From Hyperthermus butylicus DSM 5456 (GTDB taxonomy: Archaea > Thermoproteota > Thermoprotei_A > Sulfolobales > Pyrodictiaceae), in NCBI RefSeq assembly GCF_000015145.1, contig NC_008818.1, forward strand, positions 1,440,001 to 1,472,000: a stretch of DNA of 32,000 bases, given 5' to 3'. Within the stretch, counting starts at the first letter, position 1, and each line of letters starts with the position of its first letter. A model generated the notes under the pieces. The model made no database searches and was not told the DNA's origin. It was given only the letters and a program-made list of their open reading frames with translations. This document shows, in pieces, positions 7,335-32,000 of the stretch. Both the position numbers and the translations under genes were made by a program.

Positions 7335-8408
7335 GTGGCTAGTGGGAGTAACAGCTTCTTCCCCCTTGCTGAGGGTGCAGCTGAGGCTGCCTCAGCTAGG
7401 CGCCCGGAGACCAGGGATATTGTTCGCCGGCTGGGCGTCATACCGCCGGAGAGGATAACGATTACGAACTATCCCGTGGCGCGCCCACTAGCGGTATTCA
7501 ATGCCGCGCTAAGCGTCGAGGAGGACAACGCAAGGATATACGCGAGAATAATAATGGGCTATTACCTCTACATCTCAGCTATAGCTGAGATAAACATACC
7601 CCTCGAGGACATCAATGATGGTAGTGTGGGTTGGCGCAACTACGCTGCGGCCATAGTTGTTTACCCGTCAACACGCTACGATGTATGGGGCACCGAGGAC
7701 CCGAGAGTATTCAGGCTCGACGAAAAACTATACATGGTTTATACAGGTAGAACAGTCAACTACTTCAGGCAAGGCGCGGAGAGGGAGCGCACCCTCCCCG
7801 TCGCAGCAGTAATGGAGGAGAATGGCTGGACGAAAAAGGCGGTATTCGTGCTACCCCCGGGGCTCCGAAGGCATCTTATAAGCGATAAGAACGCCTTCCT
7901 CGTGAGGGTCGGCGGCGACCTCCTGCTATTCCACAGGCCGCACATGGACGACAATAGGTTCTACCTCGCAGTGAGTAAGGTTGAAGAGCTCCCGCATACG
8001 TGCAGTAGCGGTATCTGCGAGATCGAGGTTAGGGATACTGTTTGGGTTCTACCGCAGGCACCCTTTGAGACAAAGATTGGCTGGGCAACACCGCCAGTCG
8101 ATGTGGCAGGAGACACCGTGATAGCCCTAGCACATGGCGTCGACCGTGAAATTGGCGTTTACCGCGTCTTCGCGGTTAAGCTACGCTACAGCCGGAAAAG
8201 GGGCATCACAGTGGAATCCGTGACCCCAACATACATCATGGAGCCCAGGGAGATATACGAGGTGTACGGCGACAGGCCCTACACCATATTCCCCTGCGGC
8301 GCCTGGAGAGTAGACCGCGACACCGTACTGCTAACCTATGGCGCAGGAGACTACGTAGTCGGAATAGGCTCCCTCAACATCAACGAACTCATAGATATGC
8401 TCGAGTAG
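7335..8408 (+). CDS. GH130/DUF377 (PH1107-related) glycosidase or glycoside phosphorylase-like protein
   Basis: VFNAALSVEEDNARIYARI and WGTEDPRVFRLDEKLYMVYTG are typical of the five-bladed beta-propeller GH130 family. Confidence 0.7.
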   Translation: MASGSNSFFPLAEGAAEAASARRPETRDIVRRLGVIPPERITITNYPVARPLAVFNAALSVEEDNARIYARIIMGYYLYISAIAEINIPLEDINDGSVGWRNYAAAIVVYPSTRYDVWGTEDPRVFRLDEKLYMVYTGRTVNYFRQGAERERTLPVAAVMEENGWTKKAVFVLPPGLRRHLISDKNAFLVRVGGDLLLFHRPHMDDNRFYLAVSKVEELPHTCSSGICEIEVRDTVWVLPQAPFETKIGWATPPVDVAGDTVIALAHGVDREIGVYRVFAVKLRYSRKRGITVESVTPTYIMEPREIYEVYGDRPYTIFPCGAWRVDRDTVLLTYGAGDYVVGIGSLNINELIDMLE

Positions 8409-8704: not shown

Positions 8705-9103
8705 TTATATCGTGTATTCTTCTACTGCTTTTATGATATCGGGGTCGTTTGTTACTGGTTTTGCTTTACGGTTTATGCACTGAGCTGCTATGAGCGAGTC
8801 GAAGTAGTCTATTCCCTCTTTCTCGGCTAGCTCTACGGCGAGGGCGAAGTCTGCCGGTAGTAGTGGCTCTACGGTTTCCTCGTTTAGGATTGCTGCCAGG
8901 AGCTGCCATGTGTCCCGGCGCTCGCTAGGGGTGAAGCCTCTACTCTTCATCAGTAGGTCTAGCTCTATGAGTGCTGCCTGTGATACTCGGCGGCCCGGGT
9001 TCAAGCTCTCGATGAGCCTTGCAGCCTCCTCGTGGAGGGGATCGTCGGGGTTTAGGTAGGCGACGAGGTATACTGTGTCAATTATCTCTCTGGTCTGCTC
9101 CAC
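8705..9103 (-). CDS. vapC: PIN-domain ribonuclease toxin VapC
   Basis: Acidic PIN residues in IIDTVYL, ALIELDLL, YFDSLIAAQC and VTNDPD. Lies directly downstream of, and overlapping, an AbrB-type antitoxin gene. Confidence 0.85.
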   Translation of the reverse strand: MEQTREIIDTVYLVAYLNPDDPLHEEAARLIESLNPGRRVSQAALIELDLLMKSRGFTPSERRDTWQLLAAILNEETVEPLLPADFALAVELAEKEGIDYFDSLIAAQCINRKAKPVTNDPDIIKAVEEYTI

Positions 9104-9359
9104 GCTTCATCATCTCCTCTAGCAGCCGTGTAGCTTCATGGTTTTCCTCTCTCCAGCCCTTCATCTTCCTGCGGAAGGCCTCTGCTACCCGCTCGTAGAG
9201 CTTGTCTAGCGGCACCAGCTCTATCACGCCGTCGCTCCTAACCCTTACTAGGAGCCGGGAGCCCTCCCGCAGCCCCACCGCGTCCCTTACCTCGCGGGGT
9301 ACCAGTAGCCTTCCACGCGAGTCAAGCCGCACAATCCGTGCCAAGACGCTGCCTCCCAC
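9078..9359 (-). CDS. vapB: AbrB/SpoVT-family antitoxin VapB
   Basis: Swapped-hairpin motif RIVRLDSRGRLLVPREVRDAVGLREGSRLLVRV. I prefer the GVG start GTG at 9359, because an AATAAAA box (9381-9388, minus strand) lies ~26 nt upstream and implies a leaderless mRNA. The longest ORF extends to the ATG at 9446. Confidence 0.8.
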   Translation of the reverse strand: MGGSVLARIVRLDSRGRLLVPREVRDAVGLREGSRLLVRVRSDGVIELVPLDKLYERVAEAFRRKMKGWREENHEATRLLEEMMKRGADQRDN

Positions 9360-9380
9360 TGGTCTAGGTGTAGCCCACAG

Positions 9381-9388
9381 TTTTATTG
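9381..9388 (-). promoter_or_regulatory. candidate TATA box for leaderless vapBC
   Basis: CAATAAAA on the minus strand, centred ~26 nt upstream of the GTG at 9359. Confidence 0.35.
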
Positions 9389-9539
9389 GCTTGTGGGCTC
9401 TCCCTCTACGGGCTGCCCACTGTAGCGTGTTGCTACCCTGCAGCATAGCGTATATGCATAGGCTTATGGGTAGCCTTCAACAGTGTAAGTCCCGGCCCAC
9501 GCTAGGGCTGCCGCAGGCCCTCCCAAAGGGGATGCCTCG

Positions 9540-11096
9540 TTGGCCGGGTCTAGTGGTAGGTGCCTGCTCGCCTTCTTTGGTGGCTCGAGGCAGGAGCTTC
9601 TGGGCCTGTTGTCGCTTGCCGTCAGGGTTTGGGAGACTCTCGGCACAGACCACGTCTATGTTGCTGGCGGCCGTAGTGTTGAAGCCGTCATGAATGCTGC
9701 AGAGGCTCTGCGCAGCTATCTTAGAGCCCAGGATGTTGATGCTTCCGTGGAGTTTGCAGGCGCCATTAGTGGGGACGACCCGGTTAACGCTATACGCAGG
9801 CTTGTAGCTGGATTACGTGGGAAGTGCGGCTTCCTTGTGGTGTCACCATCACCGGCTAGCCGTAGGCTTGCTACCGCTGTTGGGCTTGCTGCAAGGGGGC
9901 TACCTGAGCCGCAGGGTGTGGCAATTGTGCTTCTCGACTTTCTCTGGGGGCCCTGGAGCGGGCTCCCCTACCCCTACGTGCCCCGCGCTGTGGAGCCACT
10001 CCTGGTCCTACCGCCCACGGGCCGTGAGGCTCTCTCCGAGCCACGCAAACCCGCTATGGCGAGGGGCGATCTCGTATCTAGGGGCTGTAAAGACCCGGGG
10101 CTGGGTGGACTGCCACCTCTACGGTGCAGAGTTGCAGAACTCGCGAGAAGGCTCAACGCCGCCACTGTAGGCGCACACGTGTACATAGAGCATGAGAGGG
10201 TATGGATACGGTGCAACTGTCGTGCCGCGATAAAGCTCTCCCTGAACAATACCGTGCACCGGATCAATCTTGGCGACCCGTGTAGCCATGAGGCGTGGTG
10301 TAGCGCAGCAGCGAGGCTCGCCGAGCTTGTCGAGCACGTGCTCCCACAGCTTTACCAAAGCCGCCACGGTGGCCGCCACAGCCTTGAGGGTCTGGCACAA
10401 CAGCTGGCGCTGTTTACGGGGCTCCGCCGCATAGAGCCCTGTAACCCTAGCGGAGAGGAGCTGGGCTCAGCAAGAACAATTGTTGATACTAGCCTCGTCT
10501 ACGCCGGGATACACAACTACGCCTACACTGGCGCCAGGATATTACTACCTTACTGCGCCATAGTGGAGGTTACGAGGAGGTATGCAGAGTCCGCGAAAAG
10601 GACCGTGGAGCCCCTGGAGGGTCTCACCGACCTCCTGGCCTACACGGCGCTGGAGGAGCTAGAGTATGCAGGCGCCTCGGTAGCCCCGTCCCCGGCGACA
10701 GATTGCGACATAGCTATACCAGACATAGACCCTCTCATCCTCAACGGCACAGTACTAGCCACGAGGGATACGGGTGCTGCGAGCTTCTGGCAACGCCACC
10801 CAGCATCAAGGATAGCAGCAGGCATAGCCCTGGTACACGATGCCGAGCAGGGCTGCAGAAGCCCACCACGTGGCATGGAGCACTATGCTGCGCGGAGAAC
10901 CGGAGAGAACTGCCAGGGGAGCCGGCTAGGGGCTTCGTGGGCCTCCTACGCTGTGCTCCAGGCCTTGGTGGCGCTCAAAACACTTGAGAGGATAGATGCA
11001 GAGAGAATGGGTAGGGGGAGGCTCAGCGTGGAGATGGTAGTGGACTGCGGCGATGGCGCTGTGGGGGTGCAGGTGCCGGCCCTGCCGGTGGGCTAG
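9540..11096 (+). CDS. 518-aa multidomain protein: tentative Csa3/CARF-like Rossmann N-domain, Cys-cluster middle region, C-terminal PIN-domain nuclease
   Basis: aa 7-135 show a beta/alpha alternation (CLLAFFGGSRQELLGLL; HVYVAGGRS..AAEALRSYLRAQ; GFLVVSPSPASRRLATAVGLAA). aa 196-254 carry C..CxC..Cx5C. aa 312-420 carry the PIN quartet: IVDTS (D316), VEV (E343), TDCDIA (D388/390), ATRDTG (D410). TTG start with GGGGAT 7 nt upstream. Confidence 0.6.
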   Translation: MAGSSGRCLLAFFGGSRQELLGLLSLAVRVWETLGTDHVYVAGGRSVEAVMNAAEALRSYLRAQDVDASVEFAGAISGDDPVNAIRRLVAGLRGKCGFLVVSPSPASRRLATAVGLAARGLPEPQGVAIVLLDFLWGPWSGLPYPYVPRAVEPLLVLPPTGREALSEPRKPAMARGDLVSRGCKDPGLGGLPPLRCRVAELARRLNAATVGAHVYIEHERVWIRCNCRAAIKLSLNNTVHRINLGDPCSHEAWCSAAARLAELVEHVLPQLYQSRHGGRHSLEGLAQQLALFTGLRRIEPCNPSGEELGSARTIVDTSLVYAGIHNYAYTGARILLPYCAIVEVTRRYAESAKRTVEPLEGLTDLLAYTALEELEYAGASVAPSPATDCDIAIPDIDPLILNGTVLATRDTGAASFWQRHPASRIAAGIALVHDAEQGCRSPPRGMEHYAARRTGENCQGSRLGASWASYAVLQALVALKTLERIDAERMGRGRLSVEMVVDCGDGAVGVQVPALPVG

Positions 11097-12991
11097 CGAC
11101 GGTCAAACTTGAAGGGTGATATGTAGTCGCCCCAGCGGCTCTGAGCCTCCTTAAGCCTCTCCTTCTGCTTCCTCAACACGTCGAAGAGCACCTTGGGCGT
11201 ATCGGGTATCTGCTCGTACACCTTCCACACCCTCTCTATCTTTGCTAGGTGCTGGGGCACTCTCAGCATGAACTCCTTCTCGTACCGGGACTCTGGATAA
11301 TCTTTCCCAAGGTGCTCCTCGAATAGCTTCACCAGATCCTGGTAGACCGGTATCAGCCCGGTGGGAGTTCGTACGGCATCTACGTCGCCGTGGACGCGTA
11401 GCTCCATCCACTTCAGCCAAACCCTCTTATCAACCTTCTCAGCTATGTAGCGGCCCTGCTCGTCCCGGAGGAAGTAGTTGACGCTGAATATCCTGGGCAG
11501 CTTCTCGACCTTTTCTGCAAAGTCTAGGTGCAGCTGGATAAACTTGCCTATGGAGATTGGTAGGAAGTCCAGGATGGCGAATGGGTTTAGCTCCCGAACA
11601 CCCGCCTTCTCGAGTATCGCAGCAGTCTTCTCAGACTCCAACGCCGCGGCCTTCGTTATAATGCCGTGTACCCAGTCAAAAGCCTCCTCCACCGGGACCC
11701 AGGTGTCAGGATCCCTGCCGCCAAAGATCATCGCGCTAATGGGTACGCCCATCGGGTCGTCGACCCGAGGGTCTAGGTTGGGTAGGCTGCGGAGCGATAT
11801 GGTGAACCTTGCATTGGGGTGTGACGGCGGTACCTCCCTGCCGTTTTCGTCCTTCTTGCCGGGCCACCAGCGGCCAGCATAGTTTAGGCCGGGCCGGGGC
11901 TCGCCCTCCTTGCCGTTCCACCAGACCTCGCCATCATCGGTGAGCAAGACATTTGAGAATATTATCTCGTTGCTTGGGTCTGTTAGGAGCTTGTAGAGTA
12001 CCGGGTCGTCCCGGGGGTTGACACCGTCAATTATGCCGAACATACCCATCTCTGGATTTACGCCGTGGGGTACGCCGTTGACGGGCTTTATGATTGCTAG
12101 GTCGTCGCCTACAATGGTGTCGGAGATGAAAGCCGTTGAGGTCTTGCCACAGCCTGCTGGGAATGCGCCTGTGAAGTATGTAAGCCTCCCGCCAGGGCCA
12201 CGGACACCGACTATGAACATGTGTTCGCAGAGCCAGCCCTCCAGGTAGCCCTTGTATATACAGAGGCGGAACATTAGCTTCTTGAGGCCTATAGTGTTAC
12301 CCCCGTACTGGGTGTTAACACTGTAGACAGTGTAGTCGTGGAGGTCTACGTATATCCTCCTTTTATCGATGTTCTTGCTCCAGCCATTCTCGCCCCGCTC
12401 CCCCGCAGAGTGTATGAACCGGGCATAGAACAGGTTGGGAGCCTTCTCCACGAACTCGTCGTAGCAGAGACGGTAGAGTATGTTCTCGTTGTGAGCCACG
12501 TAGGCCGAGTCGGTGATCTGTACAGCGTGGAGGGTAAACGGCGACCTCTTAGGCCCGAAACAGTAGAAGCCTATGAACATCTCGCGACCGCGCATAATGC
12601 CGCGTAGCAGCTCCCTGATCTCAGCCAGTCCCTTGTCCCGGTCGTAGGTGTTTATGAAGGGTATCTTCTCCCCGCCTGGCAGCAGGATGCGGGTATTCTT
12701 ACGATCCCTCGCAATATCCCGAGGCCCGTCAAAGTGCACCGTATGCCTGGGATAGCGGGTCGGGAGTTCCTCACGGTTACGCAGCGCAGCCTTCCTCACA
12801 TACTCAAAGTCTTCCTCACTCGTGATAAGGTAAACCATGGCTGGTTCGGTAACCCTTATGACATCCGCTATCCAGCGGTGCAGCTCCGGGTCACGGATAC
12901 GCAGAAGCTTCTCCAGCATATCCCGGCTCATCCGCGCCTCAAGGACAGCCATATAGTCGTACTCTTCGTCAAGAAGTCGGGTCCTAGGCAC
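11093..12991 (-). CDS. pckG: phosphoenolpyruvate carboxykinase (GTP)
   Basis: 632 aa with the kinase-1a P-loop FPAGCGKTS and archaeal GTP-PEPCK-like sequence throughout (YFLRDEQGRY, RFTISL). Confidence 0.95.
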   Translation of the reverse strand: MPRTRLLDEEYDYMAVLEARMSRDMLEKLLRIRDPELHRWIADVIRVTEPAMVYLITSEEDFEYVRKAALRNREELPTRYPRHTVHFDGPRDIARDRKNTRILLPGGEKIPFINTYDRDKGLAEIRELLRGIMRGREMFIGFYCFGPKRSPFTLHAVQITDSAYVAHNENILYRLCYDEFVEKAPNLFYARFIHSAGERGENGWSKNIDKRRIYVDLHDYTVYSVNTQYGGNTIGLKKLMFRLCIYKGYLEGWLCEHMFIVGVRGPGGRLTYFTGAFPAGCGKTSTAFISDTIVGDDLAIIKPVNGVPHGVNPEMGMFGIIDGVNPRDDPVLYKLLTDPSNEIIFSNVLLTDDGEVWWNGKEGEPRPGLNYAGRWWPGKKDENGREVPPSHPNARFTISLRSLPNLDPRVDDPMGVPISAMIFGGRDPDTWVPVEEAFDWVHGIITKAAALESEKTAAILEKAGVRELNPFAILDFLPISIGKFIQLHLDFAEKVEKLPRIFSVNYFLRDEQGRYIAEKVDKRVWLKWMELRVHGDVDAVRTPTGLIPVYQDLVKLFEEHLGKDYPESRYEKEFMLRVPQHLAKIERVWKVYEQIPDTPKVLFDVLRKQKERLKEAQSRWGDYISPFKFDRR

Positions 12992-13240: not shown

Positions 13241-13813
13241 TTGGCCTACACGTTGAACGATCTCTCATGGCTGTTTAGGAAGCTGCAGGAGCATGGCATA
13301 AAGGGCGTTGTCATTGGAAGCACGGTAATTGAGCTGGCGCTAAGGCGGAAGTCTTTCGAGGATGACGTGGACGTATTTGCGTTGGAACCTAGCCCCCTCA
13401 TAGAGGAGGACTTCTACCGCTCGGTAGCCGAGCGGGAGGACTGGCAGGTCAGCTACACAGCGCTCGGCACCCCAAAGTTCATAGTAAAGCTGCCCTCCGG
13501 GGAGGAGGTCATAGTGGAGTTCTACGAAAACATCCACGACTTCTACGTGCCACCCGAGATACTGGAGCAGGCCCCGAAGAAGAGTATTGGCGGTGTGGAG
13601 ATCCGGGTGATAAGGCCTGAGGACTATATAGTCCTCAAGGCTAAGGCCGCCAGAGAGCCCGACATCGAGGATCTAAGGATAATCAGGGAGTACATAGACG
13701 AGGGTAAGCTCAAGATAGACGAGAGGATAGTCAAGAGGGACATAGAGCTGCTACCCGAGGAGGAGCAAGGCTTCGTCGTAAACAAGCTCCGTGAACTAGG
13801 CTTCCGCGTCTAG
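13241..13813 (+). CDS. minimal nucleotidyltransferase-fold protein (MNT/DUF2204-like), solitary
   Basis: hG[GS]-x(n)-D-h-D pattern: VVIGSTVIELALRRKSFEDDVDVFA. A later segment, IRVIRPEDYIVLKAKAAREPDIEDL, is typical of archaeal NTase families. TTG start. Confidence 0.7.
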   Translation: MAYTLNDLSWLFRKLQEHGIKGVVIGSTVIELALRRKSFEDDVDVFALEPSPLIEEDFYRSVAEREDWQVSYTALGTPKFIVKLPSGEEVIVEFYENIHDFYVPPEILEQAPKKSIGGVEIRVIRPEDYIVLKAKAAREPDIEDLRIIREYIDEGKLKIDERIVKRDIELLPEEEQGFVVNKLRELGFRV

Positions 13814-14233: not shown

Positions 14234-15262
14234 TTGCCGGGTAGGCTTTACAGATTCTACCTGGATGAGTGGGCTGGCGCAGCACGCTCTGCTTATGCTG
14301 CTGGGGTTTCGCTAGGGCTTTCGCCAGGCTATGCCTGCGTGGACACTGTTGTTGTCTGTGGTATGGGTGGCAGTGGGGCTGCCGGAGACTATCTTGCCCA
14401 ATTGTCAGCCCACTATGGCGGTGTACCCATATACGTTGTGAAGGCTGCATCTGTCCCGGGCTGGGTCGGAAGCAAGAGCCTCGTCTACGCTGTGAGCTTC
14501 TCTGGCAATACGAGGGAGACGCTCGAGTGCGCAGTGAAGGCCTACCGGCAGGGGGCTAAGCTTGTCGCTGTTACGCGTGGCGGCCTACTGGGGAGCTGGG
14601 CAAAGAGACACGGCGTGCCAGTGGCGTTTATCGGGGAAGCGCCCGCGCCGAGGGCTGGCTGGCCAAACCTATTCTACACGATGCTGGGAAGCCTTGAGTC
14701 CCTGGGACTGCTTAGGCTGCCGCGTAGCGAGGTCGAAGAGTCCATAGAGCTGCTGGGCTTGAGGGAGGATGCGGAGACTGAGGCCGGGAGGCTTGTAGAC
14801 TGGCTCGGCACCGTTGCCGGGGGCTGGCTCTCCATAGTCGCAGCTGAACCATACTACCCGGCTGCTGTGAGGTTTAGGAGCGAGCTGGCGGAGAACGCAA
14901 AGCTGGCTAGCGATGCTAGCCAGGTGCCGGAGGCAGGACATAACATCATCGTGGGCATGGCCGGGAGGAGGGATACCGCACTGCTCATACTGGACCCGGT
15001 AGAGGAGCCCTGGACCACGATACTGAAGGGCTTCGCTGAGGCCGTAGGACCGGCCTCGAGCTACACGCTAAGACTACGCGGTAAGGGCATGCTGCCAAAG
15101 CTTGTCTGGGCCACGTGGATAGCGGGGCTATCCTCAACACTCTACGCGGAGAGGCATGGCCTGGATCCGGAGGCGATACCGGCAATAAAGGCGTTTAGGA
15201 GGCTTGTGGAGGAGAAGACTAGCTGGGGCCAGCAGGCCATTAGGGAGTCCGAGAAGAGCTAA
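14234..15262 (+). CDS. bifunctional phosphoglucose/phosphomannose isomerase (crenarchaeal PGI/PMI, SIS domain)
   Basis: VVVCGMGGSGAAGDYL and SFSGNTRETL SIS motifs. Size (~340 aa) and layout match the PGI/PMI family described in Aeropyrum and Pyrobaculum. Confidence 0.85.
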   Translation: MPGRLYRFYLDEWAGAARSAYAAGVSLGLSPGYACVDTVVVCGMGGSGAAGDYLAQLSAHYGGVPIYVVKAASVPGWVGSKSLVYAVSFSGNTRETLECAVKAYRQGAKLVAVTRGGLLGSWAKRHGVPVAFIGEAPAPRAGWPNLFYTMLGSLESLGLLRLPRSEVEESIELLGLREDAETEAGRLVDWLGTVAGGWLSIVAAEPYYPAAVRFRSELAENAKLASDASQVPEAGHNIIVGMAGRRDTALLILDPVEEPWTTILKGFAEAVGPASSYTLRLRGKGMLPKLVWATWIAGLSSTLYAERHGLDPEAIPAIKAFRRLVEEKTSWGQQAIRESEKS

Positions 15263-15322
15263 GCAATGGGGTATTGAAGGTGGATATACTTATTATGGGA
15301 GGCACTGGCACAGCCCCACTGC

Positions 15323-15592
15323 ATGGAGGGGTTAGGGATAATGCCCAGCGAGTACCTAGCCCAGCTACGCGACCTCATTAAGCCAAAGCTCCAGGAGAAG
15401 GGCCTAAAGGCCCTCCTAGTGGGCTCGACGCTGAAAATAGTAAAGGACGGCGAGACCGTGATGAACATATCTGATAAGGGTGAAATAGTCGAGCTAACCT
15501 TCAAGGGGAAGAAGTACACCTATGACAAGTGGTACACCAAGCCTGAGCACCTAGCAGCCACGATTAAGACCACGTTAGAACATCAGCTCTAA
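15323..15592 (+). CDS. hypothetical small protein (89 aa)
   Basis: Balanced, protein-like composition. An A/T box ATATACTTATTAT (15285-15297) lies ~30 nt upstream. No family recognised. Confidence 0.5.
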   Translation: MEGLGIMPSEYLAQLRDLIKPKLQEKGLKALLVGSTLKIVKDGETVMNISDKGEIVELTFKGKKYTYDKWYTKPEHLAATIKTTLEHQL

Positions 15593-15636
15593 CCGAACCA
15601 GGCACATCGTTGTCATCCACAGTTCTTAAGCAAATG

Positions 15637-15641
15637 TTTTT
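15637..15641 (+). terminator. oligo-T tract, candidate archaeal terminator
   Basis: TTTTT lies 45 nt after the stop at 15592. Confidence 0.25.
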
Positions 15642-16025
15642 AAAGTCCAATTGAGCCAGCTCCTTCTCCATACACAACTCCGTAACCGCCAATATCACCG
15701 TCCCTCATTAGCGTAAATAGGCTCAAACAGTCACCTACCACATTACGCAAATCATGCTACACTATGCAACAGCGAACGGCTGTTTGATGCAGGACCCCAA
15801 GATATCACAACAATCAGTTAAGTACTACGCTATTGTTTGTAGGCAAGGTAATACTACAGTCATAGCGGTTCTTCACAGAGTCTCTCGTTGTGCTCCTCGC
15901 GGTTGGTGGAGTCAGACACTTAAGCATCCAATCTTACGAGGACGAGGCTCCACGAGTGTACACGCCATGCAGGAGCTGGCAGTGGAACACTATGACTACT
16001 CGCGAATGAAGAGCCAGTCTTCAAC

Positions 16026-16397
16026 GTGCCAAGGCTCGGCAAGAACCACCTGCGAGCAGGACAGGACCACGAGCTGATAATGATAAGGCCTGACGGCCGC
16101 CGTGTCTACCTCTGGCATCCATGGGAGAAGAACATACAGCTAGTAGACCCCTACATCTACACAGACATGATATCCATAAAGATGTACCTCGACAAGCTCC
16201 AAGAGGTGTTCGGCGAAGACCCAGAAGACTACAAGAGCATATGGTACTACTACCAGCCCATAACACACGTACGATCTCAGGCAAAGAGCCAGCAATCAAC
16301 ACCTTTTTACGCATCATCCCAAACCGCTAGCATATCCACAACTCCTACCATTCAAGCCTACACCCATAGAGTGGACAGGAGCATAAGTTCTCGGTAG
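16026..16397 (+). CDS. hypothetical protein, possibly the 3' part of a frameshifted gene
   Basis: Protein-like stretch HELIMIRPDGRRVYLWHPWEKNIQLVDPYIYTDMISIKMYLDKLQEVFGEDPEDY. The frame is open back to 15996 and overlaps the end of the frame-1 ORF 15754-16077. Sits in a low-GC island. Confidence 0.35.
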   Translation: MPRLGKNHLRAGQDHELIMIRPDGRRVYLWHPWEKNIQLVDPYIYTDMISIKMYLDKLQEVFGEDPEDYKSIWYYYQPITHVRSQAKSQQSTPFYASSQTASISTTPTIQAYTHRVDRSISSR

Positions 16398-16431
16398 GTT
16401 AAGTTATAATGCTGCAATGGGTAGTAAAGAC

Positions 16432-16989
16432 ATGCCCAGGCAGCCTAGGGGTGCAGTATAGGCTTGCAAGAGTGGAAGCCCGTCGTACATGACGAGTTTA
16501 CCGGAGAGACGAGATGAAGGCTGAGAAGGGACTGGTTCGGTACTATTGAGGTTGACGATGGGAGAGCGTTACTGTGTACCGGTCCAAGCGAAGCTTTGTA
16601 CTATTCTAATGCAGAGATTGCCAATGGAGAGTTTGATTAGCTGCCCTGAGAGCCCTCGTCGTCATTGAACTCGCGCCAGCATGACCGGGCTTCACTATGG
16701 CAGTATGGGGATTGGCTTCTGGAGAGGTATAAGGCTGTGGATGCTCCTCTCAACAATAGCCAAGCCCTTGGTACCAATAAATATCGTCTCCACCAGGCCT
16801 GTCATGCTTGATATAGAGCTGCAAGAGAGGCATGTGTACCGTGTAGAATACATCGGTGATAGAGCGAGATTCCTAATTGACGGCAGGCTTGTTGCCGAGC
16901 TGCCTGCAAGGCCTGGTAGAATGAGGGCTTATGCTTGGATAGACAGTGTCGTCTTCATGGCCGGGGCGGGATGCTGTGATGGTCTATAG
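16432..16989 (+). pseudogene. decayed gene for a ConA-like lectin/glucanase (DUF1080/LamG-like) jelly-roll protein
   Basis: TTATAAT box (16404-16410) sits 25 nt before the ATG at 16432. The reading frame then breaks: frame 1 to frame 3 near 16450, in-frame TGA 16515-16517, TAG 16638-16640, TGA 16647-16649, and back to frame 1 near 16670. Conceptual product: EWKPVVHDEFTGE..DWF..IEVDDGRALLCTGPSEALYYSNAEIANGEF..HYGSMGIGFW..HVYRVEYIGDRARFLIDGRLVAEL. Confidence 0.45.
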
Positions 16990-23592: not shown

Positions 23593-24201
23593 ATGGCCTG
23601 GAAGGTAAACATTCTCATAGCCTCTGTCGGGGGGCAGGGGGGACTTACGCTGTCCAGGGTTCTAGCAGCAGCTGCTGTCTACGCGGGGCTTAGCGTGAGA
23701 ACTGGCGAGACGCTAGGTATGTCCCAGAGGTTCGGCTCGGTAGTCAGCTACGTGCGGATCGGTGAGAGGGTTTACGCGCCGACCTTCCCACCGGGCGAGG
23801 CAGACTGCATGGTCGCCCTGGAGCTGACGGAGGCCGTTAGGAACCTGCACATGCTCCGGAGGAGCGGCCTACTAGTGGCAGCCGATACTGTGAAGCCGCC
23901 GGTGAGTGCTAGCCTCGACCAGACCCCCCACCCATCCAGGGGGGAGCTGCTGGCAGCACTGAGAGAGGCTGATGCGAGGCTCGTAGTTGTGCCGGCCCGG
24001 GAGCTGGCTCTGAGAACAGGGAACCCCCGGGCGGCAAATATGGTGCTGCTTGGTGTGCTCAACAAGCTTGCAGGCCTACTACCACACAGCGCCGTGGAGA
24101 AAGCTATCATCAACGTTCTGCGGGGCCGCCGCGGTGAAACTTCCGTCAAGGCTTACTGGCTCGGTGTAGACTATGCTGCAAGGCTGAGAGAATCATCCTA
24201 A
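23593..24201 (+). CDS. iorB: indolepyruvate:ferredoxin oxidoreductase, beta subunit
   Basis: NILIASVGGQGGLTLSRVL, the POR gamma-like domain. Starts 8 nt after iorA. Confidence 0.9.
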   Translation: MAWKVNILIASVGGQGGLTLSRVLAAAAVYAGLSVRTGETLGMSQRFGSVVSYVRIGERVYAPTFPPGEADCMVALELTEAVRNLHMLRRSGLLVAADTVKPPVSASLDQTPHPSRGELLAALREADARLVVVPARELALRTGNPRAANMVLLGVLNKLAGLLPHSAVEKAIINVLRGRRGETSVKAYWLGVDYAARLRESS

Positions 24202-24510
24202 AGCATGGAGGCTGTAACAGCTTCTCCCTGAGCCCAACCATAGCTATGACAATAGCCCTAAAGCCCTAATGCTATACAAGCCAGAGCCTCGATCCCATGA
24301 GCCATCACAGCTAAAGCCTTCAAGCCCCACTTACTAGTGGGCTCCTCCTCTATTGCTGAAGTAGCTAGCTACCACGAAACCGCAACCACCAGCAATTGAA
24401 AGCTATTGAGATTGATAGGCCCCTCCCTCTTAGCCAGAACTAAGCAGCATGCACGCCAAAGCCTAGCTAAAATACTCCTCATATAGGTACTCAGGATAGA
24501 ATGGCCTATA

Positions 24511-25458
24511 GTGCACACCGAGGGATTACCCTTGGAAAGCCATGCTGCTTCTAGCTCACGCAGGTTCCTCTTGCCCCTAGTTGCAGCTGTGCTGGTCACT
24601 GTTGCCCTCCTACTGGTTCCATCCCAGCTACACTATGGAGGTACAGGAGGAGACAGCGACGCCAACACTGAGAACTGCGTCCTGCAGGCTAGCCAGACCG
24701 GTAGCTTTACTCATGCCGGCATACACTACTATGGAGAGTGTAGTTTTAAACACTACGGTTTAGTATTACTGCAGCTTCCAGTGTAACGGGCTGGACCTCA
24801 AGGCTGTTCAGGAGATCCGCATAATTCTTGGTGAGGAGAACATAACCTTCAATCTCCCACAACTCGTCCGGGCTGTGAGTGTTGGCGGCATTATATACTT
24901 TGGTGTTGCACCGGGAACTGTACGGGATGGGGAGTACTAAACCAGTGTCGACCTACTATTGGTAGCGTACAATGAGACTACTGGTACCCGCTTTGAGACT
25001 AGTATGCGTGTTGAGTTACCGGAAAAGATTGTAGAGTATAGACCGTCGGTAGTAAAGCTAGCAGAGTACGAATACACGCTTAACAGCTCAATGCCAACGA
25101 TAAAAGTGAACATTTCAGAGGTCACTGGAAGGGAAGGAGCGTATTATGCCAGTATAACCCTCCAGGGTGAGGGCTATCTGAAGGTAACCTACATCGATGA
25201 AAAAGGCGCTACAGCCGGCTATATAGTCCAGCTAAGTGATCTGGGGTGGCCACGGGAAACCCTCAACATACCATTCATGGTGTCTGCAGCTTGTGGCGAG
25301 AAGCCAGCATGGCCCAAGGGCTGTTGACCTTTACCCTCATAGAGGGCGAAGCCAGGGCTACTGTAAAGATCTACCGGTCCGAGTACATAACACTGGTACT
25401 CGTATTCGAGGATGGGAGCGAGAAGCCGTTGTACCTACCAGTCACCAGCATGGACTAG
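24511..25458 (+). pseudogene. disrupted gene for a secreted/anchored beta-rich protein of unknown function
   Basis: CATATAGG box ~28 nt before the GTG at 24511, then a signal/TM segment RRFLLPLVAAVLVTVALLLV. The frame changes from 1 to 2 near 24765. There is an in-frame TAA at 24938-24940. The frame changes from 2 to 1 near 25320 (..AWPKG / LLTFTLIEGEARATVKIY..). Confidence 0.4.
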
Positions 25459-25476
25459 CAAACCCTCCACGCAGGG

Positions 25477-26235
25477 CTAACCGTGGGCCAGCAGCTTTCT
25501 AGCTTCCTCAACGAGTCTTGGCAGCACCTCACCCGCCCTACCTTTTAGGAATACATCAGCTATGGGGGTTACCGCTGACTCCTCTATGTTGACTTCGACC
25601 ACGTAGCCGCCATGCTGTTTCACGATGTGCGGGATATAGCCTGCAGGCATAACGACACCGCTGGTTCCAACCACGAGAATGCCCTGGCTAGACTCTGCAA
25701 GCTCGACCGCTGTTCTCCAAGCCTCCTCGGGTAGAGGCTCTCCAAACCAGACCACGTCGGGGCGCAGGAGGCCGCCACAGCGCGGACAGCGTGGCGGGAC
25801 CTCTCTTGGGGGCTCCCTGAATACCAGCTTGTAACTGCAGCGCATGCACCTGGCCCGCCAAATATTCCCGTGGAGTTCTACAACACAGTGCTGCCCAGCA
25901 CGCTGGTGCAGACCGTCAACGTTCTGCGTCACCACGCATCTTATGAGCCCGAGCCTCTCAAGCTCAACTAGCGCGTAGTGCGCGGGATTCGGCCTGGCCT
26001 TGTAGATTATCTCCATCCTCCACCTGTACCATTCCCAGACAAGCCGGGGGTTCCTCTCAAACGCCTCCGGCGTAGCAAGCTCTTCCGGCCTGAACCTCTC
26101 CCATAGCCCACCACGCCCCCTGAAGGTCGGCACACCACTCTCAGCCGATATGCCAGCCCCGGTGAACGCTATGAAGGGCCGATACTGTACAAGCAGCTCC
26201 GCAGCCCGGCGAATATCCTCCACAAGTCCAACCAT
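25477..26235 (-). CDS. cobB: NAD-dependent protein deacylase, Sir2 family
   Basis: [27 protein letters not shown], Zn ribbon CMRCS..CPRCGG, VVGTSG. Start preferred at the internal ATG at 26235 ([15 protein letters not shown]). The longest ORF reaches 26307. Confidence 0.9.
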
Positions 26236-26639
26236 AGGAAGCCATGCCTCCAAGAGAACACCAGTCCACGAGTAGCAGCCATATACCCCACGCAGCCCAA
26301 AGTACACCCTGGCTCCGCGGAGCAGGGCCGCTGCGTAAGACGGCCCGCTCGGGATGATGCGGAGCCGGGGTCTTCTCGCCCGCAGCCCATGCCTAGACCA
26401 TCAAACTCCATGCCTTAGCAGCCAGCCTAGCGTGGTAGGTGAACCTTGTAATCATGAGGACGTATAGGAGGAACCTTCTTAGGTGTTGCCACGGCCTAGC
26501 CATACCATAATCTGGTTTTGTTGCAGCTCTAAGTGTTCTGTTCATGGCAAGGTGTGCTATCACGTTATTTAAGGCATATACACTTGGTTAGTACCCCGTT
26601 CGCCACCTAGGCCTAAGCTAATTAGGTTAATTATGCATA

Positions 26640-30486: not shown

Positions 30487-30640
30487 AGCGTAGAGAACAG
30501 GCTTGCCTCTGTATAGCTCTACATGTTGCTACGGGCTGACGCTGCACCATGAGAGCCCACTAAAACCCCCACGGCGCTCGTTGTAGAGATTCCGAACGAT
30601 TACATAAACTACCGCTTAGCTTTTAACCTGCGCGATAATG

Positions 30641-30647
30641 TTTAAAT
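30641..30647 (+). promoter_or_regulatory. TATA box TTTAAAT with an A/T-rich BRE-like flank (GATAATG)
   Basis: Near-consensus crenarchaeal TATA, centred 27 nt upstream of the in-frame GTG at 30671. Confidence 0.5.
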
Positions 30648-30670
30648 TTCAGCTTACGCTACTATATTGT

Positions 30671-32000
30671 GTGGACTATACTACGGATACGACCGCCAAG
30701 CTAGAGCTTCTAAGGGTGGGAGTTGTGGCGAGTCGTGCGGCTTTAATAGCTGGTATTGTTGTGCTTGTTGTTATTGTTGCTGGTATTGCGGTCTACTTTG
30801 CCTCCAAGCCTGAGGAGAAGCCTGCAGCACCAACCGAACAGCCAACAGAACAACCAACAACAACACCAACAGAAGAAAAGCCTACGGAGACCAAGCCCCA
30901 GCTACCACAGCTAACCGGCAACATAGAGGAGGACATTGTTAACATTGCAAACTACCTGATAGCAAACGGCGTCAAGGAAGTTAAGTTCACCGTCTGGGGC
31001 GCCGGTGACCCCAACAGCGTCCTTAGAACCCTGGCAATCGTCGAGGCTGCCTATAGGCTCAACAAGATACTAGAGGAGAAGGGCATAGACTTCAAGATCA
31101 TTATCGAGCAGGACTTCAAGCGTGGCGGCGGCGACCAGCTAGCAGAGAAGTTCGCCACCGCGTTCCAGAGCGCGGCCAATGCCGACATAATGGCTAACAG
31201 CTACAAGCACCTGGCAAGGTTTGCTGAGGAAGGCTACATACTCGACATAACACCATACGTTGAAGCCTACAAGGACTTCATAAGCGACTTCTACTCAAGC
31301 CTACTAGAGGCCGTCAAGTACAATGGCAAGTACTACGCCATACCACAGGACACAGAGGCTAGGCCACTCTACTGGAGGACAGACGTAGCGGCATGCATCA
31401 AGGAGAAGACCGGTGAGGACATCCTCGTAAACCTCTACGAGAAGGTTGAGAAGGGCGAGGTAACCTGGAAGGACGTCTACCGCTACGCCAAGCTAGCAGT
31501 CGAGAACGGCTGCAGCGAGTGGGGCGTACTGCACAGGAAGGGAAGCGCCCACCCAGACCTAATACAGTTCATATTCGCCTTCGGCGGCACACTATACGAC
31601 CCCAACACCAACAAGCTAGTCCTAGACGTGCCCGCTGTCTACAAGTGGCTGTACGTAGAGTGGAAGATGGCCCGTGACGGCCTCATACCAAAGGACATGA
31701 TGAGCTGGGACTGGGCAAAGCAGATACACCCAACAGTCGTCGACGGCAAGACGCTAGCCTGGATTGGCGGCACCTGGCACTGGACAGAGTGGCAGACCAA
31801 GCCATACCACACCGACCCGCAGACCGGCGAGAAGAGGCCACTAACAGCCGAGGAGGTCAAGAACTACTTCTACTACACGCTATTCCCGGCAGGTGAGCCC
31901 GGCCAGAAGCCAGTAACGCTAAGCCAGCCATTCGTGTGGTACATAGCTAGCAATGCTGGCAAGGACAACCCGAAGTACGACGAGCTCAAGGAGGCCTACC
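30671..32000 (+). CDS. sugar ABC transporter substrate-binding protein (family 1 SBP), membrane-anchored, 3' end cut by window edge
   Basis: The frame is open to the window end, which explains its absence from the ORF track. TM anchor AALIAGIVVLVVIVAGIAVYF, then Pro/Thr/Glu linker PTEQPTEQPTTTPTEEKPTETKP, then an SBP body (KFTVWGAGDP, YYAIPQDTEARPLYWR). Alternative starts are GTG at 30716 and GTG at 30725, which is preceded by GGGTGGGAG. Confidence 0.8.
   Translation, partial: MDYTTDTTAKLELLRVGVVASRAALIAGIVVLVVIVAGIAVYFASKPEEKPAAPTEQPTEQPTTTPTEEKPTETKPQLPQLTGNIEEDIVNIANYLIANGVKEVKFTVWGAGDPNSVLRTLAIVEAAYRLNKILEEKGIDFKIIIEQDFKRGGGDQLAEKFATAFQSAANADIMANSYKHLARFAEEGYILDITPYVEAYKDFISDFYSSLLEAVKYNGKYYAIPQDTEARPLYWRTDVAACIKEKTGEDILVNLYEKVEKGEVTWKDVYRYAKLAVENGCSEWGVLHRKGSAHPDLIQFIFAFGGTLYDPNTNKLVLDVPAVYKWLYVEWKMARDGLIPKDMMSWDWAKQIHPTVVDGKTLAWIGGTWHWTEWQTKPYHTDPQTGEKRPLTAEEVKNYFYYTLFPAGEPGQKPVTLSQPFVWYIASNAGKDNPKYDELKEAY

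Follow-up and report, generated by a model that had tools for sequence, protein, structure and literature searches.

Architecture and proposed function of Hbut_1444, a CARF-PIN protein of Hyperthermus butylicus

The 32-kb stretch of the Hyperthermus butylicus DSM 5456 genome analyzed here (the window) encodes a large protein in which the initial annotation recognized a CARF-type sensor joined to a PIN nuclease, and the locus raises the question of what such a protein senses and cuts. Our analyses place it, with near certainty, in the archaea-specific CARF-PIN clade CARF_m3 (Crf10/Crf11). As for its function, we lean, with limited confidence, towards a cyclic-oligoadenylate (cOA)-gated RNase, and a role independent of CRISPR has to be weighed against this reading.

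Identity, start codon, and clade of Hbut_1444

The translated open reading frame is 100% identical to ABM81268.1 'hypothetical protein Hbut_1444' (UniProt A2BMQ7) of H. butylicus DSM 5456, a host of the archaeal kind to which Crf10/Crf11 belong. The initial annotation had described a 518-residue frame of normal GC content, and both points were confirmed (GC of 0.60-0.61 at the gene within a range of 0.50-0.615 along the window); the residue numbers it quoted (C196, C225, C227, C248, C254, D316, E343, D388/D390, and D410) are all correct. Hbut_1444 is a real gene, because its profile retrieves 128 of 1.84 billion cluster representatives at E<=1e-3, including 62 at E<=1e-30, and the majority are full length. 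Searches with the protein against Pfam and NCBIfam and a single-sequence search of the PDB returned no match, and PADLOC alone recognized it: the model PDLC01984 'CARF_m3--CARF_PIN' aligned residues 6-518 with positions 1-433 of its 433 positions at an E-value of 1.5e-195.

Two lengths of the protein are on record, 518 residues (ABM81268.1/A2BMQ7) and 495 residues (RefSeq WP_153801423.1). The N-termini of homologs and the start of the PADLOC model align at residue ~6, and the 23 codons that separate the two versions are part of the protein because they code for CARF strand beta1. The RefSeq model drops this strand, and WP_153801423.1, if expressed, would therefore have a defective sensor domain. 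The features of the gene and its neighbors are collected in Table 1.

Table 1 Coordinates of Hbut_1444, its domains, and the adjacent vapBC genes in the window.
Feature	Position	Strand	Remarks
VapC, PIN PF01850	8705-9103	-	E 8.5e-13
VapB, AbrB/MazE-type antitoxin PF04014	9078-9446	-	E 1.3e-8
Complete gene Hbut_1444	9540-11096	+	518 aa + stop; TTG start; CARF - middle - PIN - C-terminal; clade CARF_m3 (Crf10/Crf11)
N-terminal 23 codons	9540-9611	+	Left out of RefSeq WP_153801423.1 (495 aa, TTG start 9609-9611); code CARF strand beta1 (residues 7-13)
CARF domain, six-stranded Rossmann-like	9555-10013	+	Residues ~6-158; secondary structure, Foldseek, family profile vs PDB
Beta5-beta6 loop, most conserved non-catalytic segment	9939-9986	+	F134-x2-G137-P-W139-x-G-L-x-Y144-P145-x2-P148-R149
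Middle domain	10092-10454	+	Residues ~185-305; sub-model pLDDT mostly 80-92
PIN-domain nuclease (predicted)	10455-10844	+	Residues ~306-435; D316 (DTN motif), E343, D390, D410; C339/C389 pair
Variable low-confidence insert	10845-10922	+	Residues ~436-461; pLDDT <50 for 442-463; gapped in homolog alignment
C-terminal module	10923-11093	+	Residues ~462-518; long helix 462-490 + beta-hairpin 495-510; pLDDT 85-94

The clade has been described before. The 2014 CARF census named Hbut_1444 by its locus tag, placed it in a family labeled 'CARF_HTH_PIN', and flagged it as not cas-adjacent, and the 2025 CRISPR classification lists the clade as Crf10/Crf11, "CARF+PIN, archaea-specific, PIN predicted RNase", with the flags 's,e' and no 'r'. 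The 2014 and 2020 CARF censuses and the CRISPR-Cas classification of 2025 already cover the protein together with its architecture and the role predicted for it, and the initial annotation had overestimated the novelty of the CARF-PIN fusion. Named in the censuses since 2014 and possessing a distant homolog crystallized with cA4, Hbut_1444 is therefore an ordinary member of a known family and adds little as a finding. Only the corrected start codon, the co-varying cysteine pairs, and an HTH that could not be confirmed go beyond what is known of CARF_m3, with which Hbut_1444 otherwise agrees.

A CARF domain joined to a PIN domain through a family-specific middle domain

The AF2 model resolved the beta-alpha-beta ladder that had been read from residues 7-135 as a CARF-type domain, with the topology b1 7-13, a1 17-34, b2 38-43, a2 47-63, b3 69-75, a3 81-93, b4 98-102, a4 108-119, b5 126-133, a loop, and b6 150-157. 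By this topology, the domain is a six-stranded Rossmann-like CARF fold with a predicted hairpin of strands 5 and 6. Foldseek matched the model with a probability of 1.00 to the CARF domains of Card1 (6xl1), Cam1 (8t65), Sis0455 (7z56), and Sso2081 (7ygl). The family profile, over its positions ~30-124, matched CARF proteins exclusively in the PDB (Sso2081, E 7e-4; Can2, 0.011; SiRe_0806, 0.014; Csm6, 0.12).

After strand 4, Hbut_1444 carries S104-P-A-S107-R108 (family consensus [ST]-P-G-S-R), which resembles the CARF signature [DN]x[ST]xxx[RK], and a small or polar residue follows strand 1. The G-S-R of the family is aligned on G-R-K106 of Sso2081 in the profile search against the PDB, and in the hhalign alignment SPGSR falls on TPGRK, which is invariant in the SiRe_0806 family. 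Conservation was counted in the Hbut_1444 alignment of 92 relatives, in which S/T104 is kept in 86/92, S107 in 63/92, and R/K108 in 59/92 (~64% basic), and the position of S16 after strand 1 shows little conservation (G 23, S 18, and D 14 of 92). The strongest conservation of the CARF region lies away from R108, at S25/R29/E32 and in the loop of residues 134-149, where P145 is invariant (92/92) and W139 (91/92), Y144 (91/92), P148 (90/92), and F134 (83/92) are nearly so. The AF2 pLDDT is <50 in this loop, to which hhalign matched 'FGYVPF' in the SiRe_0806 family; it may form a ligand lid or a dimer contact.

The middle domain is modeled as a helix (193-208, with the motif LPPLR...N206), a four-stranded beta-meander (213-245), and two further helices (250-271 and 282-293) that end at G294, with N206 conserved in 92/92 and G294 in 88/92 relatives. 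Foldseek gave no separate match for this domain, and a profile restricted to the middle region found no significant match in the PDB (best E 0.038) or in Pfam. The initial annotation had suspected a Zn site formed by C196, C225-x-C227, and C248-x5-C254. The cysteines are present in Hbut_1444 but are not conserved as a cluster of three to four ligands: C196 is found in 21/92 relatives, C225 in 4/92, C227 in 56/92, C248 in 52/92, and C254 in 0/92. A Zn site at residues 196-254 is not supported by this pattern. Moderate conservation is limited to C227 and C248, and the cysteines vary together in pairs (C183-C196, C227-C248, and C339-C389), as disulfides would; judged from the alignment, the pairs may be disulfides.

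The third of these pairs lies in the PIN domain, where C339 adjoins E343 and C389 adjoins D390, and its two members co-vary strictly, offering a cheap and testable structural prediction at the active site. Three of the acids that had been proposed for this site, D316, E343, and D410, occur in 92/92 relatives, and the fourth position, D390, is D in 72 and E in 20, hence acidic in 92/92; the alternative acid D388, conserved in 6/92, drops out of the quartet. The fold of the domain was supported by Foldseek of a PIN sub-model (pTM 0.84), which matched 3ix7 with a TM(target) of 0.64, an rmsd of 3.6 Å, and a probability of 1.00, and further matched 5f4h/5yww, 1v8p PAE2754, and the SMG6 PIN (2hww). 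In the PDB search with a PIN-only profile, chain 3i8o (MJ1533) was found at an E-value of 9.2e-5 with all four acidic motifs in sequence register, and the PADLOC CARF+PIN models matched the PIN region at E-values of 3.9e-25 and 3.9e-12. By profile and fold, the closest relatives of the PIN domain are MJ1533 (3i8o, deposited as 'KH domain-containing protein'), Thermus thermophilus 3ix7, and the archaeal RuvB-like Holliday-junction helicase 5f4h; in contrast to Hbut_1444, these have other partner domains and lack a CARF domain. We take all three chains to contain PIN domains, and their deposited names do not say so. The CARF_PIN HMM, the profile matches to CARF proteins alone in the PDB, the Foldseek matches of both domains, and the 3i8o alignment bear out the fusion of a CARF sensor to a PIN nuclease with an intact active site.

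The insert that follows the PIN domain is longer in H. butylicus than in the majority of relatives. The C-terminal module beyond it retains Y470 in 64/92 and Q474 in 71/92 relatives and, as had been noted from the sequence, resembles nothing recognized: no library searched gave a match, including Foldseek of the sub-model. The authors of the 2014 census mark the C-terminal region of a sister family '????'.

The top Foldseek matches of the Hbut_1444 model were 9jxw and 9jxx ('SiRe_0806 in complex with cA4'), with an E-value of 4e-6, a probability of 1.00, and a collinear alignment over the whole length. SiRe_0806 of Sulfolobus islandicus REY15A (PDB 9JXW apo, 9JXX with cA4) is deposited as 'PIN domain-containing protein' and belongs to the family of SSO1365 and PH0177. 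Alignment of the two families by hhalign (probability 96.7%, E 3.2e-10) covered 299 columns from CARF alpha1 to the fourth PIN acid, and SiRe_0806 is a true distant homolog of Hbut_1444 across the CARF, middle, and PIN domains. The families have in common the collinear CARF - middle - PIN - C-terminal architecture and the landmarks [ST]PG(S/R)(R/K), (Y/F)xYVP(R/F), an invariant middle-domain Asn, DTN, E, D, and D. The 'extra modules' that had seemed peculiar to Hbut_1444 are thus common to a family with a cA4-bound crystal structure. In contrast, SiRe_0806 shares ~13% identity with Hbut_1444, falls into a separate family, and is ~100 residues shorter; it has neither W139/P145 nor the C339/C389 pair (S and G there). 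The Hbut_1444 profile reaches it in the CARF region only (E 0.014), and the PIN-only profile misses its PIN domain. In our literature search, no paper describing an effect of cA4 on SiRe_0806 was found.

Genomic neighborhood of the family

The 32-kb window contains no cas gene and no CRISPR array, in agreement with the initial annotation, and no tRNAs or Rfam families were found in it; Hbut_1444 thus neither belongs to a type III cas locus nor borders one. It is divergent from a vapBC pair, as had been noted, at ~95 bp from the longest vapB open reading frame. A related-locus search with a shallow alignment yielded six MAG loci, and the homolog search repeated with the 92-sequence profile returned the identical eight proteins; the related loci come from Desulfurococcales, Aeropyrum, or Acidilobaceae MAGs only. 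Eight of nine homolog loci are housekeeping neighborhoods without cas genes, and the remaining one (L009) is the only one with cas1-cas2, found together with a HEPN/MNT homolog near the family member. No gene partner is conserved across the homolog loci. The preference of most members for housekeeping neighborhoods bears on the role of CARF sensors outside CRISPR loci.

In the 2014 table, three of ten family members are flagged as cas-adjacent (I-A, I-A, and III-B) and seven are not. The 2014 genome table lists a Cas10 for H. butylicus (GI 124027594), and by GI numbering this gene lies ~700 genes from Hbut_1444. In the relevant part of that table, five of six family-bearing genomes have Cas10; Aeropyrum pernix K1, with the family member APE_2119.1, has none listed there.

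As a separate observation, a DUF2204 nucleotidyltransferase occurs within 2-3.5 kb in two homolog loci, a recurrence that is probably due to chance or residual synteny.

Proposed function and alternative explanations

Hbut_1444 is perhaps best explained as a cOA-gated RNase, a reading to which we give slightly more credence than to all others together. In the predicted mechanism, which extends to dimerization, ligand identity, allosteric activation, RNA substrate, and biological role, Hbut_1444 would act as a dimer, and the middle domain peculiar to the family would pass the signal of ligand binding on to the C-terminal PIN. The PIN domain would be a metal-dependent RNase that uses D316/E343/D390/D410 and, once activated, would cut RNA non-specifically and thereby arrest the infected cell. 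The same logic, in which a CARF sensor at the N-terminus controls a nuclease at the C-terminus, applies to the cOA-activated type III effectors Csx1/Csm6 (CARF-HEPN) and Can1/Can2/Card1 (CARF-PD-(D/E)xK), whose CARF domains match that of Hbut_1444 by structure and profile. Hbut_1444 differs from them in having PIN instead of a HEPN or restriction-endonuclease fold and in its middle domain, and, unlike Hbut_1444, they are experimentally proven and have genes that usually lie in type III loci.

The CARF and PIN evidence, with the PIN acids conserved in every relative, argues for the cOA-gated RNase, as do the homology to SiRe_0806, the Cas10 entries of H. butylicus and most family-bearing genomes in the part of the 2014 table cited above, and the occasional CRISPR linkage. 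The sole family member with any experiment is ST0035 of Sulfolobus tokodaii, assigned to the Hbut_1444 family by the 2014 table and described by Shah et al. 2018 as a 'CARF-PIN toxin'. It has 430 residues compared with 518 in Hbut_1444, and it adjoins a type I-A cas locus according to the 2014 table, whereas Hbut_1444 is not cas-linked. ST0035 showed weak crosslinking to cA4, which supports the proposal, and its RNase activity was not induced by cA4, which speaks against it. Further points against are the cas-free window with a distant Cas10, the housekeeping surroundings of the homologs, the listing of A. pernix K1 without Cas10, the incomplete conservation of a basic residue at R108 with the top CARF conservation elsewhere, and the low identity to SiRe_0806. 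A ligand, an activity, or a phenotype has been demonstrated for no CARF_m3/Crf10-11 member, and the result for ST0035 with cA4 was negative; the clade is therefore a legitimate biochemical target.

Much of this counter-evidence would be accommodated if the clade were a vertically inherited, CRISPR-independent RNase of stress or RNA metabolism whose CARF domain senses a ligand not made by Cas10, a possibility we regard as real though rather unlikely. Such a ligand could, for example, be a different nucleotide signal, or it could be RNA whose end carries a 2',3'-cyclic phosphate; PMC7790460 provides a precedent in the divergent CARF of RtcR, for which sensing of such RNA ends was proposed. The housekeeping context of the window and of the homolog loci, the normal GC, the missing defense partner, and the majority of members not adjacent to cas genes are consistent with such a role, and so are the family member of A. 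pernix K1, for which the 2014 table lists no Cas10, and the weak binding of cA4 by ST0035 without activation. The conserved S25/R29/E32 and the GPW..YP..PR loop, moreover, depart from the ligand loops typical of CARF domains, and a basic residue occupies the R108 position in 64% of relatives. Against a CRISPR-independent role stand the crystallization of the distant homolog SiRe_0806 with cA4, the placement of the clade among cOA-pathway sensors and effectors in the 2025 classification, the cas-adjacent members, and the prevalence of Cas10 in family-bearing genomes within that part of the table; no conserved neighbor indicates an alternative ligand or its synthase. In a more specific and still less likely form, the clade would not be a CRISPR accessory but a vertically inherited signaling RNase of Crenarchaeota, in which the S25/R29/E32 face and the GPW..YP..PR loop would sense a ligand other than cA4, and C339-C389 would staple, and possibly redox-gate, the PIN active site.

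It is improbable that Hbut_1444 is primarily a ring nuclease or cOA sink, with a CARF domain that degrades cA4 and ends type III signaling and a PIN of secondary importance. The best sequence-level CARF match of the family is indeed the ring nuclease Crn1/Sso2081 (Crf7), with G-S-R placed on G-R-K106 as described above; the ring nucleases Sis0455 and Sso2081 are also among the Foldseek matches, and in the 2025 table the related CARF+PIN clade Crf6 is flagged 'r' (ring nuclease). Crn1, in contrast, is a stand-alone CARF protein of ~180 residues without an effector, and the catalytic Ser that follows beta1 in Crn1, which would correspond to the variable S16, is not kept in the family of Hbut_1444. 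The 2025 table gives Crf10/Crf11 the flags 's,e' alone, and the 100% conservation of the PIN active site points to the nuclease as the selected function.

A transcription regulator of the Csa3 kind with an attached nuclease, in which the middle domain would be a DNA-binding (w)HTH, is very improbable. The 2014 table tags the family 'HTH', the initial annotation had raised the same idea as an alternative, and the first helix of the middle domain bears the conserved LPPLR...N206 motif. The HTH of the 2014 label was nevertheless not reproduced, and the search of the middle region for a nucleic-acid-binding HTH was negative: a Pfam search of 30 middle regions found no HTH family, the PDB profile search gave no significant match, and the modeled helix, meander, and two helices do not constitute a canonical wHTH. 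The 2014 authors themselves mark the equivalent region '????' in the sister-family alignment. Csa3, a CARF + wHTH regulator, has a Rossmann-like CARF N-terminus in common with Hbut_1444, whose C-terminus, in contrast, is a PIN domain. Csa3_N matches 1/92 family members, at an E-value of 0.006, and Hbut_0318 and Hbut_0646 are genuine Csa3 proteins of H. butylicus distinct from Hbut_1444. Thus, of the earlier 'Csa3-like CARF' assignment, the CARF part stands and the Csa3 part does not, the closest domains being those of Crn1/Sso2081, Card1, Cam1, Can2, and SiRe_0806 and no HTH being detectable.

The idea that Hbut_1444 works with the adjacent vapBC, as a partner or as its third component, is suggested by the short divergent spacing and by the PIN domains encoded on both sides, and it is effectively refuted by the absence of VapBC beside any homolog; the PIN domains of Hbut_1444 and VapC show no specific relationship (hhalign probability 0.2%), and toxin-antitoxin pairs are very abundant in genomes of this kind. 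Hbut_1444 was likewise rejected as a VapBC toxin itself, being a 518-residue multidomain protein divergent from vapBC with a PIN profile unrelated to that of VapC.

Identity and start codon of Hbut_1444

The open reading frame Hbut_1444 (ABM81268.1) lies in a window that is part of the 1.667-Mb H. butylicus chromosome, and its extent and residue numbers are all as the initial annotation described, with a normal local GC of 0.60-0.61 within the range of the window. Hbut_1444 is a real gene, since searching 1.84 billion proteins with the profile of its closest relatives yields 128 cluster representatives, of which 115 score E<=1e-10 and 62 E<=1e-30, the majority being full length (410-560 aa). 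The current RefSeq product (WP_153801423.1, 495 aa) starts at the TTG at 9609 and is shorter than the 518-aa form of the original GenBank call (TTG 9540), which is consistent with the homolog N-termini and the family HMM. The longer form is the correct one, because both the homologs and the PADLOC model start at its residue ~6, and its residues 7-13 make up strand beta1, the first of the N-terminal domain.

Searches of Pfam and NCBIfam, and one of the PDB with the single sequence, returned no match. The PADLOC model PDLC01984 (CARF_m3--CARF_PIN) was matched over its full length, with residues 6-518 covering positions 1-433 of 433 at E 1.5e-195, and region 311-432 was matched by two further PADLOC CARF+PIN models (E 3.9e-25 and 3.9e-12). 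The 2014 census (Makarova et al., Supplementary Table 1) lists Hbut_1444 under its locus tag, flagged as a toxin fusion and, on a reading of unlabelled columns, not cas-adjacent. These literature entries settle its identity as a CARF-PIN protein of the CARF_m3 family, of which we are nearly certain. The protein is already known from that census, from the naming of its clade in the 2020-2025 classifications and from a homolog with a ligand-bound structure; the initial annotation was right about the two main domains but set the novelty too high and erred on a zinc site.

Features of the window and of Hbut_1444 (window coordinates)
Feature	Position	Strand	Remark
GH130 mannoside phosphorylase	7335-8408	+	E 8e-84
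vapBC pair	8705-9446	-	divergent from Hbut_1444
Hbut_1444 ORF	9540..11096	+	518 aa, TTG start
N-terminal 23 codons dropped in RefSeq model	9540-9611	+	encode CARF strand beta1
beta5-beta6 loop F134-R149	9939-9986	+	W139, Y144, P145, P148 at >=98%
C183 codon	10086-10088	+	
C196 codon	10125-10127	+	
C339 codon	10554-10556	+	
C389 codon	10704-10706	+	
GTP-dependent PEPCK gene	11093-12991	-	convergent with Hbut_1444
DUF2204 gene	13241-13813	+	
Sir2-family protein	25480-26307	-	E 6e-55
Short-ORF stretches (<=123 aa)	15260-16950, 24200-25480, 30490-32000		GC 0.51-0.55

Domain architecture and homology to SiRe_0806

The N-terminal CARF domain was recognized correctly. The AF2 model of Hbut_1444 (pLDDT 74.6, pTM 0.77) contains a six-stranded beta-alpha-beta ladder, and in a Foldseek search of the PDB its first ~140 residues aligned with the CARF domains of Card1 (6xl1), Cam1 (8t65/8t66), Sis0455 (7z56), and Crn1/Sso2081 (7ygl/7ygh), each at probability 1.00. 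A profile of 92 relatives matches mainly CARF proteins in the PDB, all at profile positions ~30-124 (E 7e-4 for Sso2081, 0.011 for Can2, 0.014 for SiRe_0806, and 0.12 for Csm6), and its few non-CARF matches are at chance level (E > 0.1). The G-S-R following strand 4 in the family (S104-P-A-S107-R108 in Hbut_1444) pairs with G-R-K106 of Sso2081. Given these matches and this motif, the earlier label 'Csa3-like' is imprecise but not wrong in kind. Conservation in the CARF region peaks at S25, R29, and E32 of helix alpha1 and in the loop F134-x2-GPW-x-GL-x-YP-x2-PR149. The top-conserved non-catalytic residues of the family, which include these and N206 of the middle region, fall outside the classical CARF ligand loops; position R108 is basic in 59/92 relatives. 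The AF2 model is unconfident at residues 135-181.

The sub-model of residues 185-518 (pLDDT 79.7, pTM 0.84) matches 3ix7 (TM 0.64 on target, rmsd 3.6 A over 128 columns, probability 1.00), the archaeal RuvB-like Holliday-junction helicase 5f4h/5yww (probability 1.00), PAE2754 (1v8p), and the SMG6 PIN domain (2hww). A PIN-only profile matches 3i8o (MJ1533; E 9.2e-5) with four of four acidic motifs in register. The predicted PIN nuclease was thus borne out: D316, E343, and D410 are invariant among the 92 relatives and position 390 holds D in 72 and E in 20 of them, indicating at the sequence level an intact active site, while D388, proposed as an alternative to D390, is not conserved.

The modelled middle region (~185-305) comprises one helix (LPPLR...N206) with N206 invariant in the 92 relatives, a four-stranded meander, and two helices. 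Its own profile found no significant match in PDB (best E 0.038) or Pfam, and no separate Foldseek match to the PDB was obtained from the 185-518 sub-model; these searches did not reproduce the 'HTH' that the family was named for in 2014. The 2014 authors wrote the domain line of the sister family as 'CARF // ???? // PIN // ????'. The C-terminal ~462-518, a long helix plus hairpin, is modelled confidently and has no known relative.

For the full model, Foldseek ranked 9jxw and 9jxx highest (E 4e-6, probability 1.00, whole length aligned). Both are PDB depositions of SiRe_0806 of Sulfolobus islandicus, the first without cA4 and the second with it; our literature search found no paper describing this protein. 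Its sequence (GI 385775529), obtained from the supplementary alignment of 2014, equals the PDB chain over 417 residues, and the family alignment includes SSO1365, PH0177 and others. Profile-profile comparison of the two families (~13% identity) gave a probability of 96.7% and E 3.2e-10 over 299 columns, which start in CARF helix 1 and end at the fourth acidic residue of the PIN domain, with SPGSR/TPGRK, YPYVPR/FGYVPF, N206/N167, DTN/DTN, E343/E253, D390/D296, and D410/D320 (Hbut_1444/SiRe_0806) in register. By this alignment the families are distant homologs from one ancestral CARF-middle-PIN fusion, and the 'extra modules' earlier regarded as unusual are ancestral to both. SiRe_0806 is nevertheless not a member of the Hbut_1444 family itself; W139/P145 are missing from it, as is the C339/C389 pair, at whose positions its family has Ser and Gly.

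The proposed zinc ligands C196, C225, C227, C248, and C254 are not kept as a set: C225 and C254 are practically unique to H. butylicus, and C196, C227, and C248 occur in 21, 56, and 52 of the 92 relatives. Cysteines co-vary in pairs instead. C339, one helical turn ahead of E343, and C389, directly ahead of D390, do so perfectly with four independent joint losses, and the gains and losses of C183 and C196 also go together. Hyperthermophilic crenarchaea have many cytoplasmic disulfides, and since pairwise co-variation is the pattern expected of intramolecular disulfides in such an organism, the pairs look like putative disulfides.

Cysteine pairs in 92 relatives, with changes counted on a UPGMA tree
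Pair	Both	One	Neither	Changes
C339/C389	86	0	6	4 per site, 4/4 joint
C183/C196	19	3	70	10 and 9, 11 joint-state
C227/C248	44	20	28	12 and 13, 21 joint-state (weak)
C8/C96	11	8	73	4 and 7, 9 joint-state (weak)

Possible mechanisms and CRISPR linkage

We lean slightly towards a dimeric sensor-effector, in which host type III Cas10 would make cyclic oligoadenylate, the CARF of the Hbut_1444 dimer would bind it, and the ligand-bound CARF would turn on the PIN RNase to arrest the infected cell. The 2014 paper (Makarova et al.) records a Cas10 in H. butylicus (GI 124027594), which by GI numbering lies about 700 genes away from Hbut_1444, and its table lists 3/10 family members as cas-adjacent (I-A, I-A, III-B). 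Part of the 2014 genome table gives Cas10 for 5/6 family-bearing genomes; Aeropyrum pernix K1 carries the family member APE_2119.1 and has no Cas10 entry there. Counted against this mechanism are the limited conservation of a basic residue at R108 beside the stronger conservation of S25/R29/E32 plus the loop, the missing cas linkage of Hbut_1444, and ST0035, a Sulfolobus tokodaii protein assigned to the same 2014 family, for which Shah et al. 2018 (PMC6546367) report only weak crosslinking to cA4 and no gain in RNase activity. The same observations keep alive the main rival, a CRISPR-independent sensor RNase gated by another ligand, which we judge possible but clearly less probable; CRISPR-independence of the clade, if true, is the sole outcome that would raise the interest of Hbut_1444. 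A role as a ring nuclease seems improbable, and one as a Csa3-like regulator slightly more so. The genuine Csa3 proteins of H. butylicus are separate (Hbut_0318 and Hbut_0646).

Eight of nine homolog loci have housekeeping neighbourhoods and no conserved partner gene. The sole cas-adjacent copy, on a short MAG contig of an uncultured Desulfurococcales (L009, 18-3298), stands in the one-strand order cas1 (E 1e-64), cas2, HEPN, MNT, CARF-PIN homolog, within which the contig stops. Pol-beta-type nucleotidyltransferases are the only recurring neighbour: the DUF2204 gene 2.1 kb from Hbut_1444, its homolog in locus L001 (5935-6504, 3.5 kb from the member), and the HEPN-paired MNT (L009 1914-2249) directly upstream of the CARF-PIN homolog. 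This recurrence is probably chance or residual synteny.

Neighbouring genes in the window

No cas genes, as had been noted, and no CRISPR arrays, tRNAs or Rfam RNAs were found in the window; the low-GC short-ORF stretches likewise gave no tRNA or Rfam family. Hbut_1444 is surrounded by genes of housekeeping type (CoaBC, transporters, GH130 phosphorylase, PEPCK, DUF2204, PGI, UbiD, 2-oxoacid:ferredoxin oxidoreductase, Sir2, and ThiD-ThiN). The 3' ends of the PEPCK gene and Hbut_1444 share 4 bp (11093-11096), where their stop codons meet, so that a terminator has no space between them. The adjacent vapBC pair is real, and Hbut_1444 is very unlikely to be its partner: vapBC is conserved beside the homologs at none of nine loci, and its PIN is unrelated to that of Hbut_1444. 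The vapB ORF (122 aa) is probably over-extended, because its AbrB/MazE domain begins only at residue 38; vapC and vapB overlap by 26 bp. Sir2 domains are found in defence systems too; the Sir2-family protein of the window looks like an ordinary stand-alone deacetylase.
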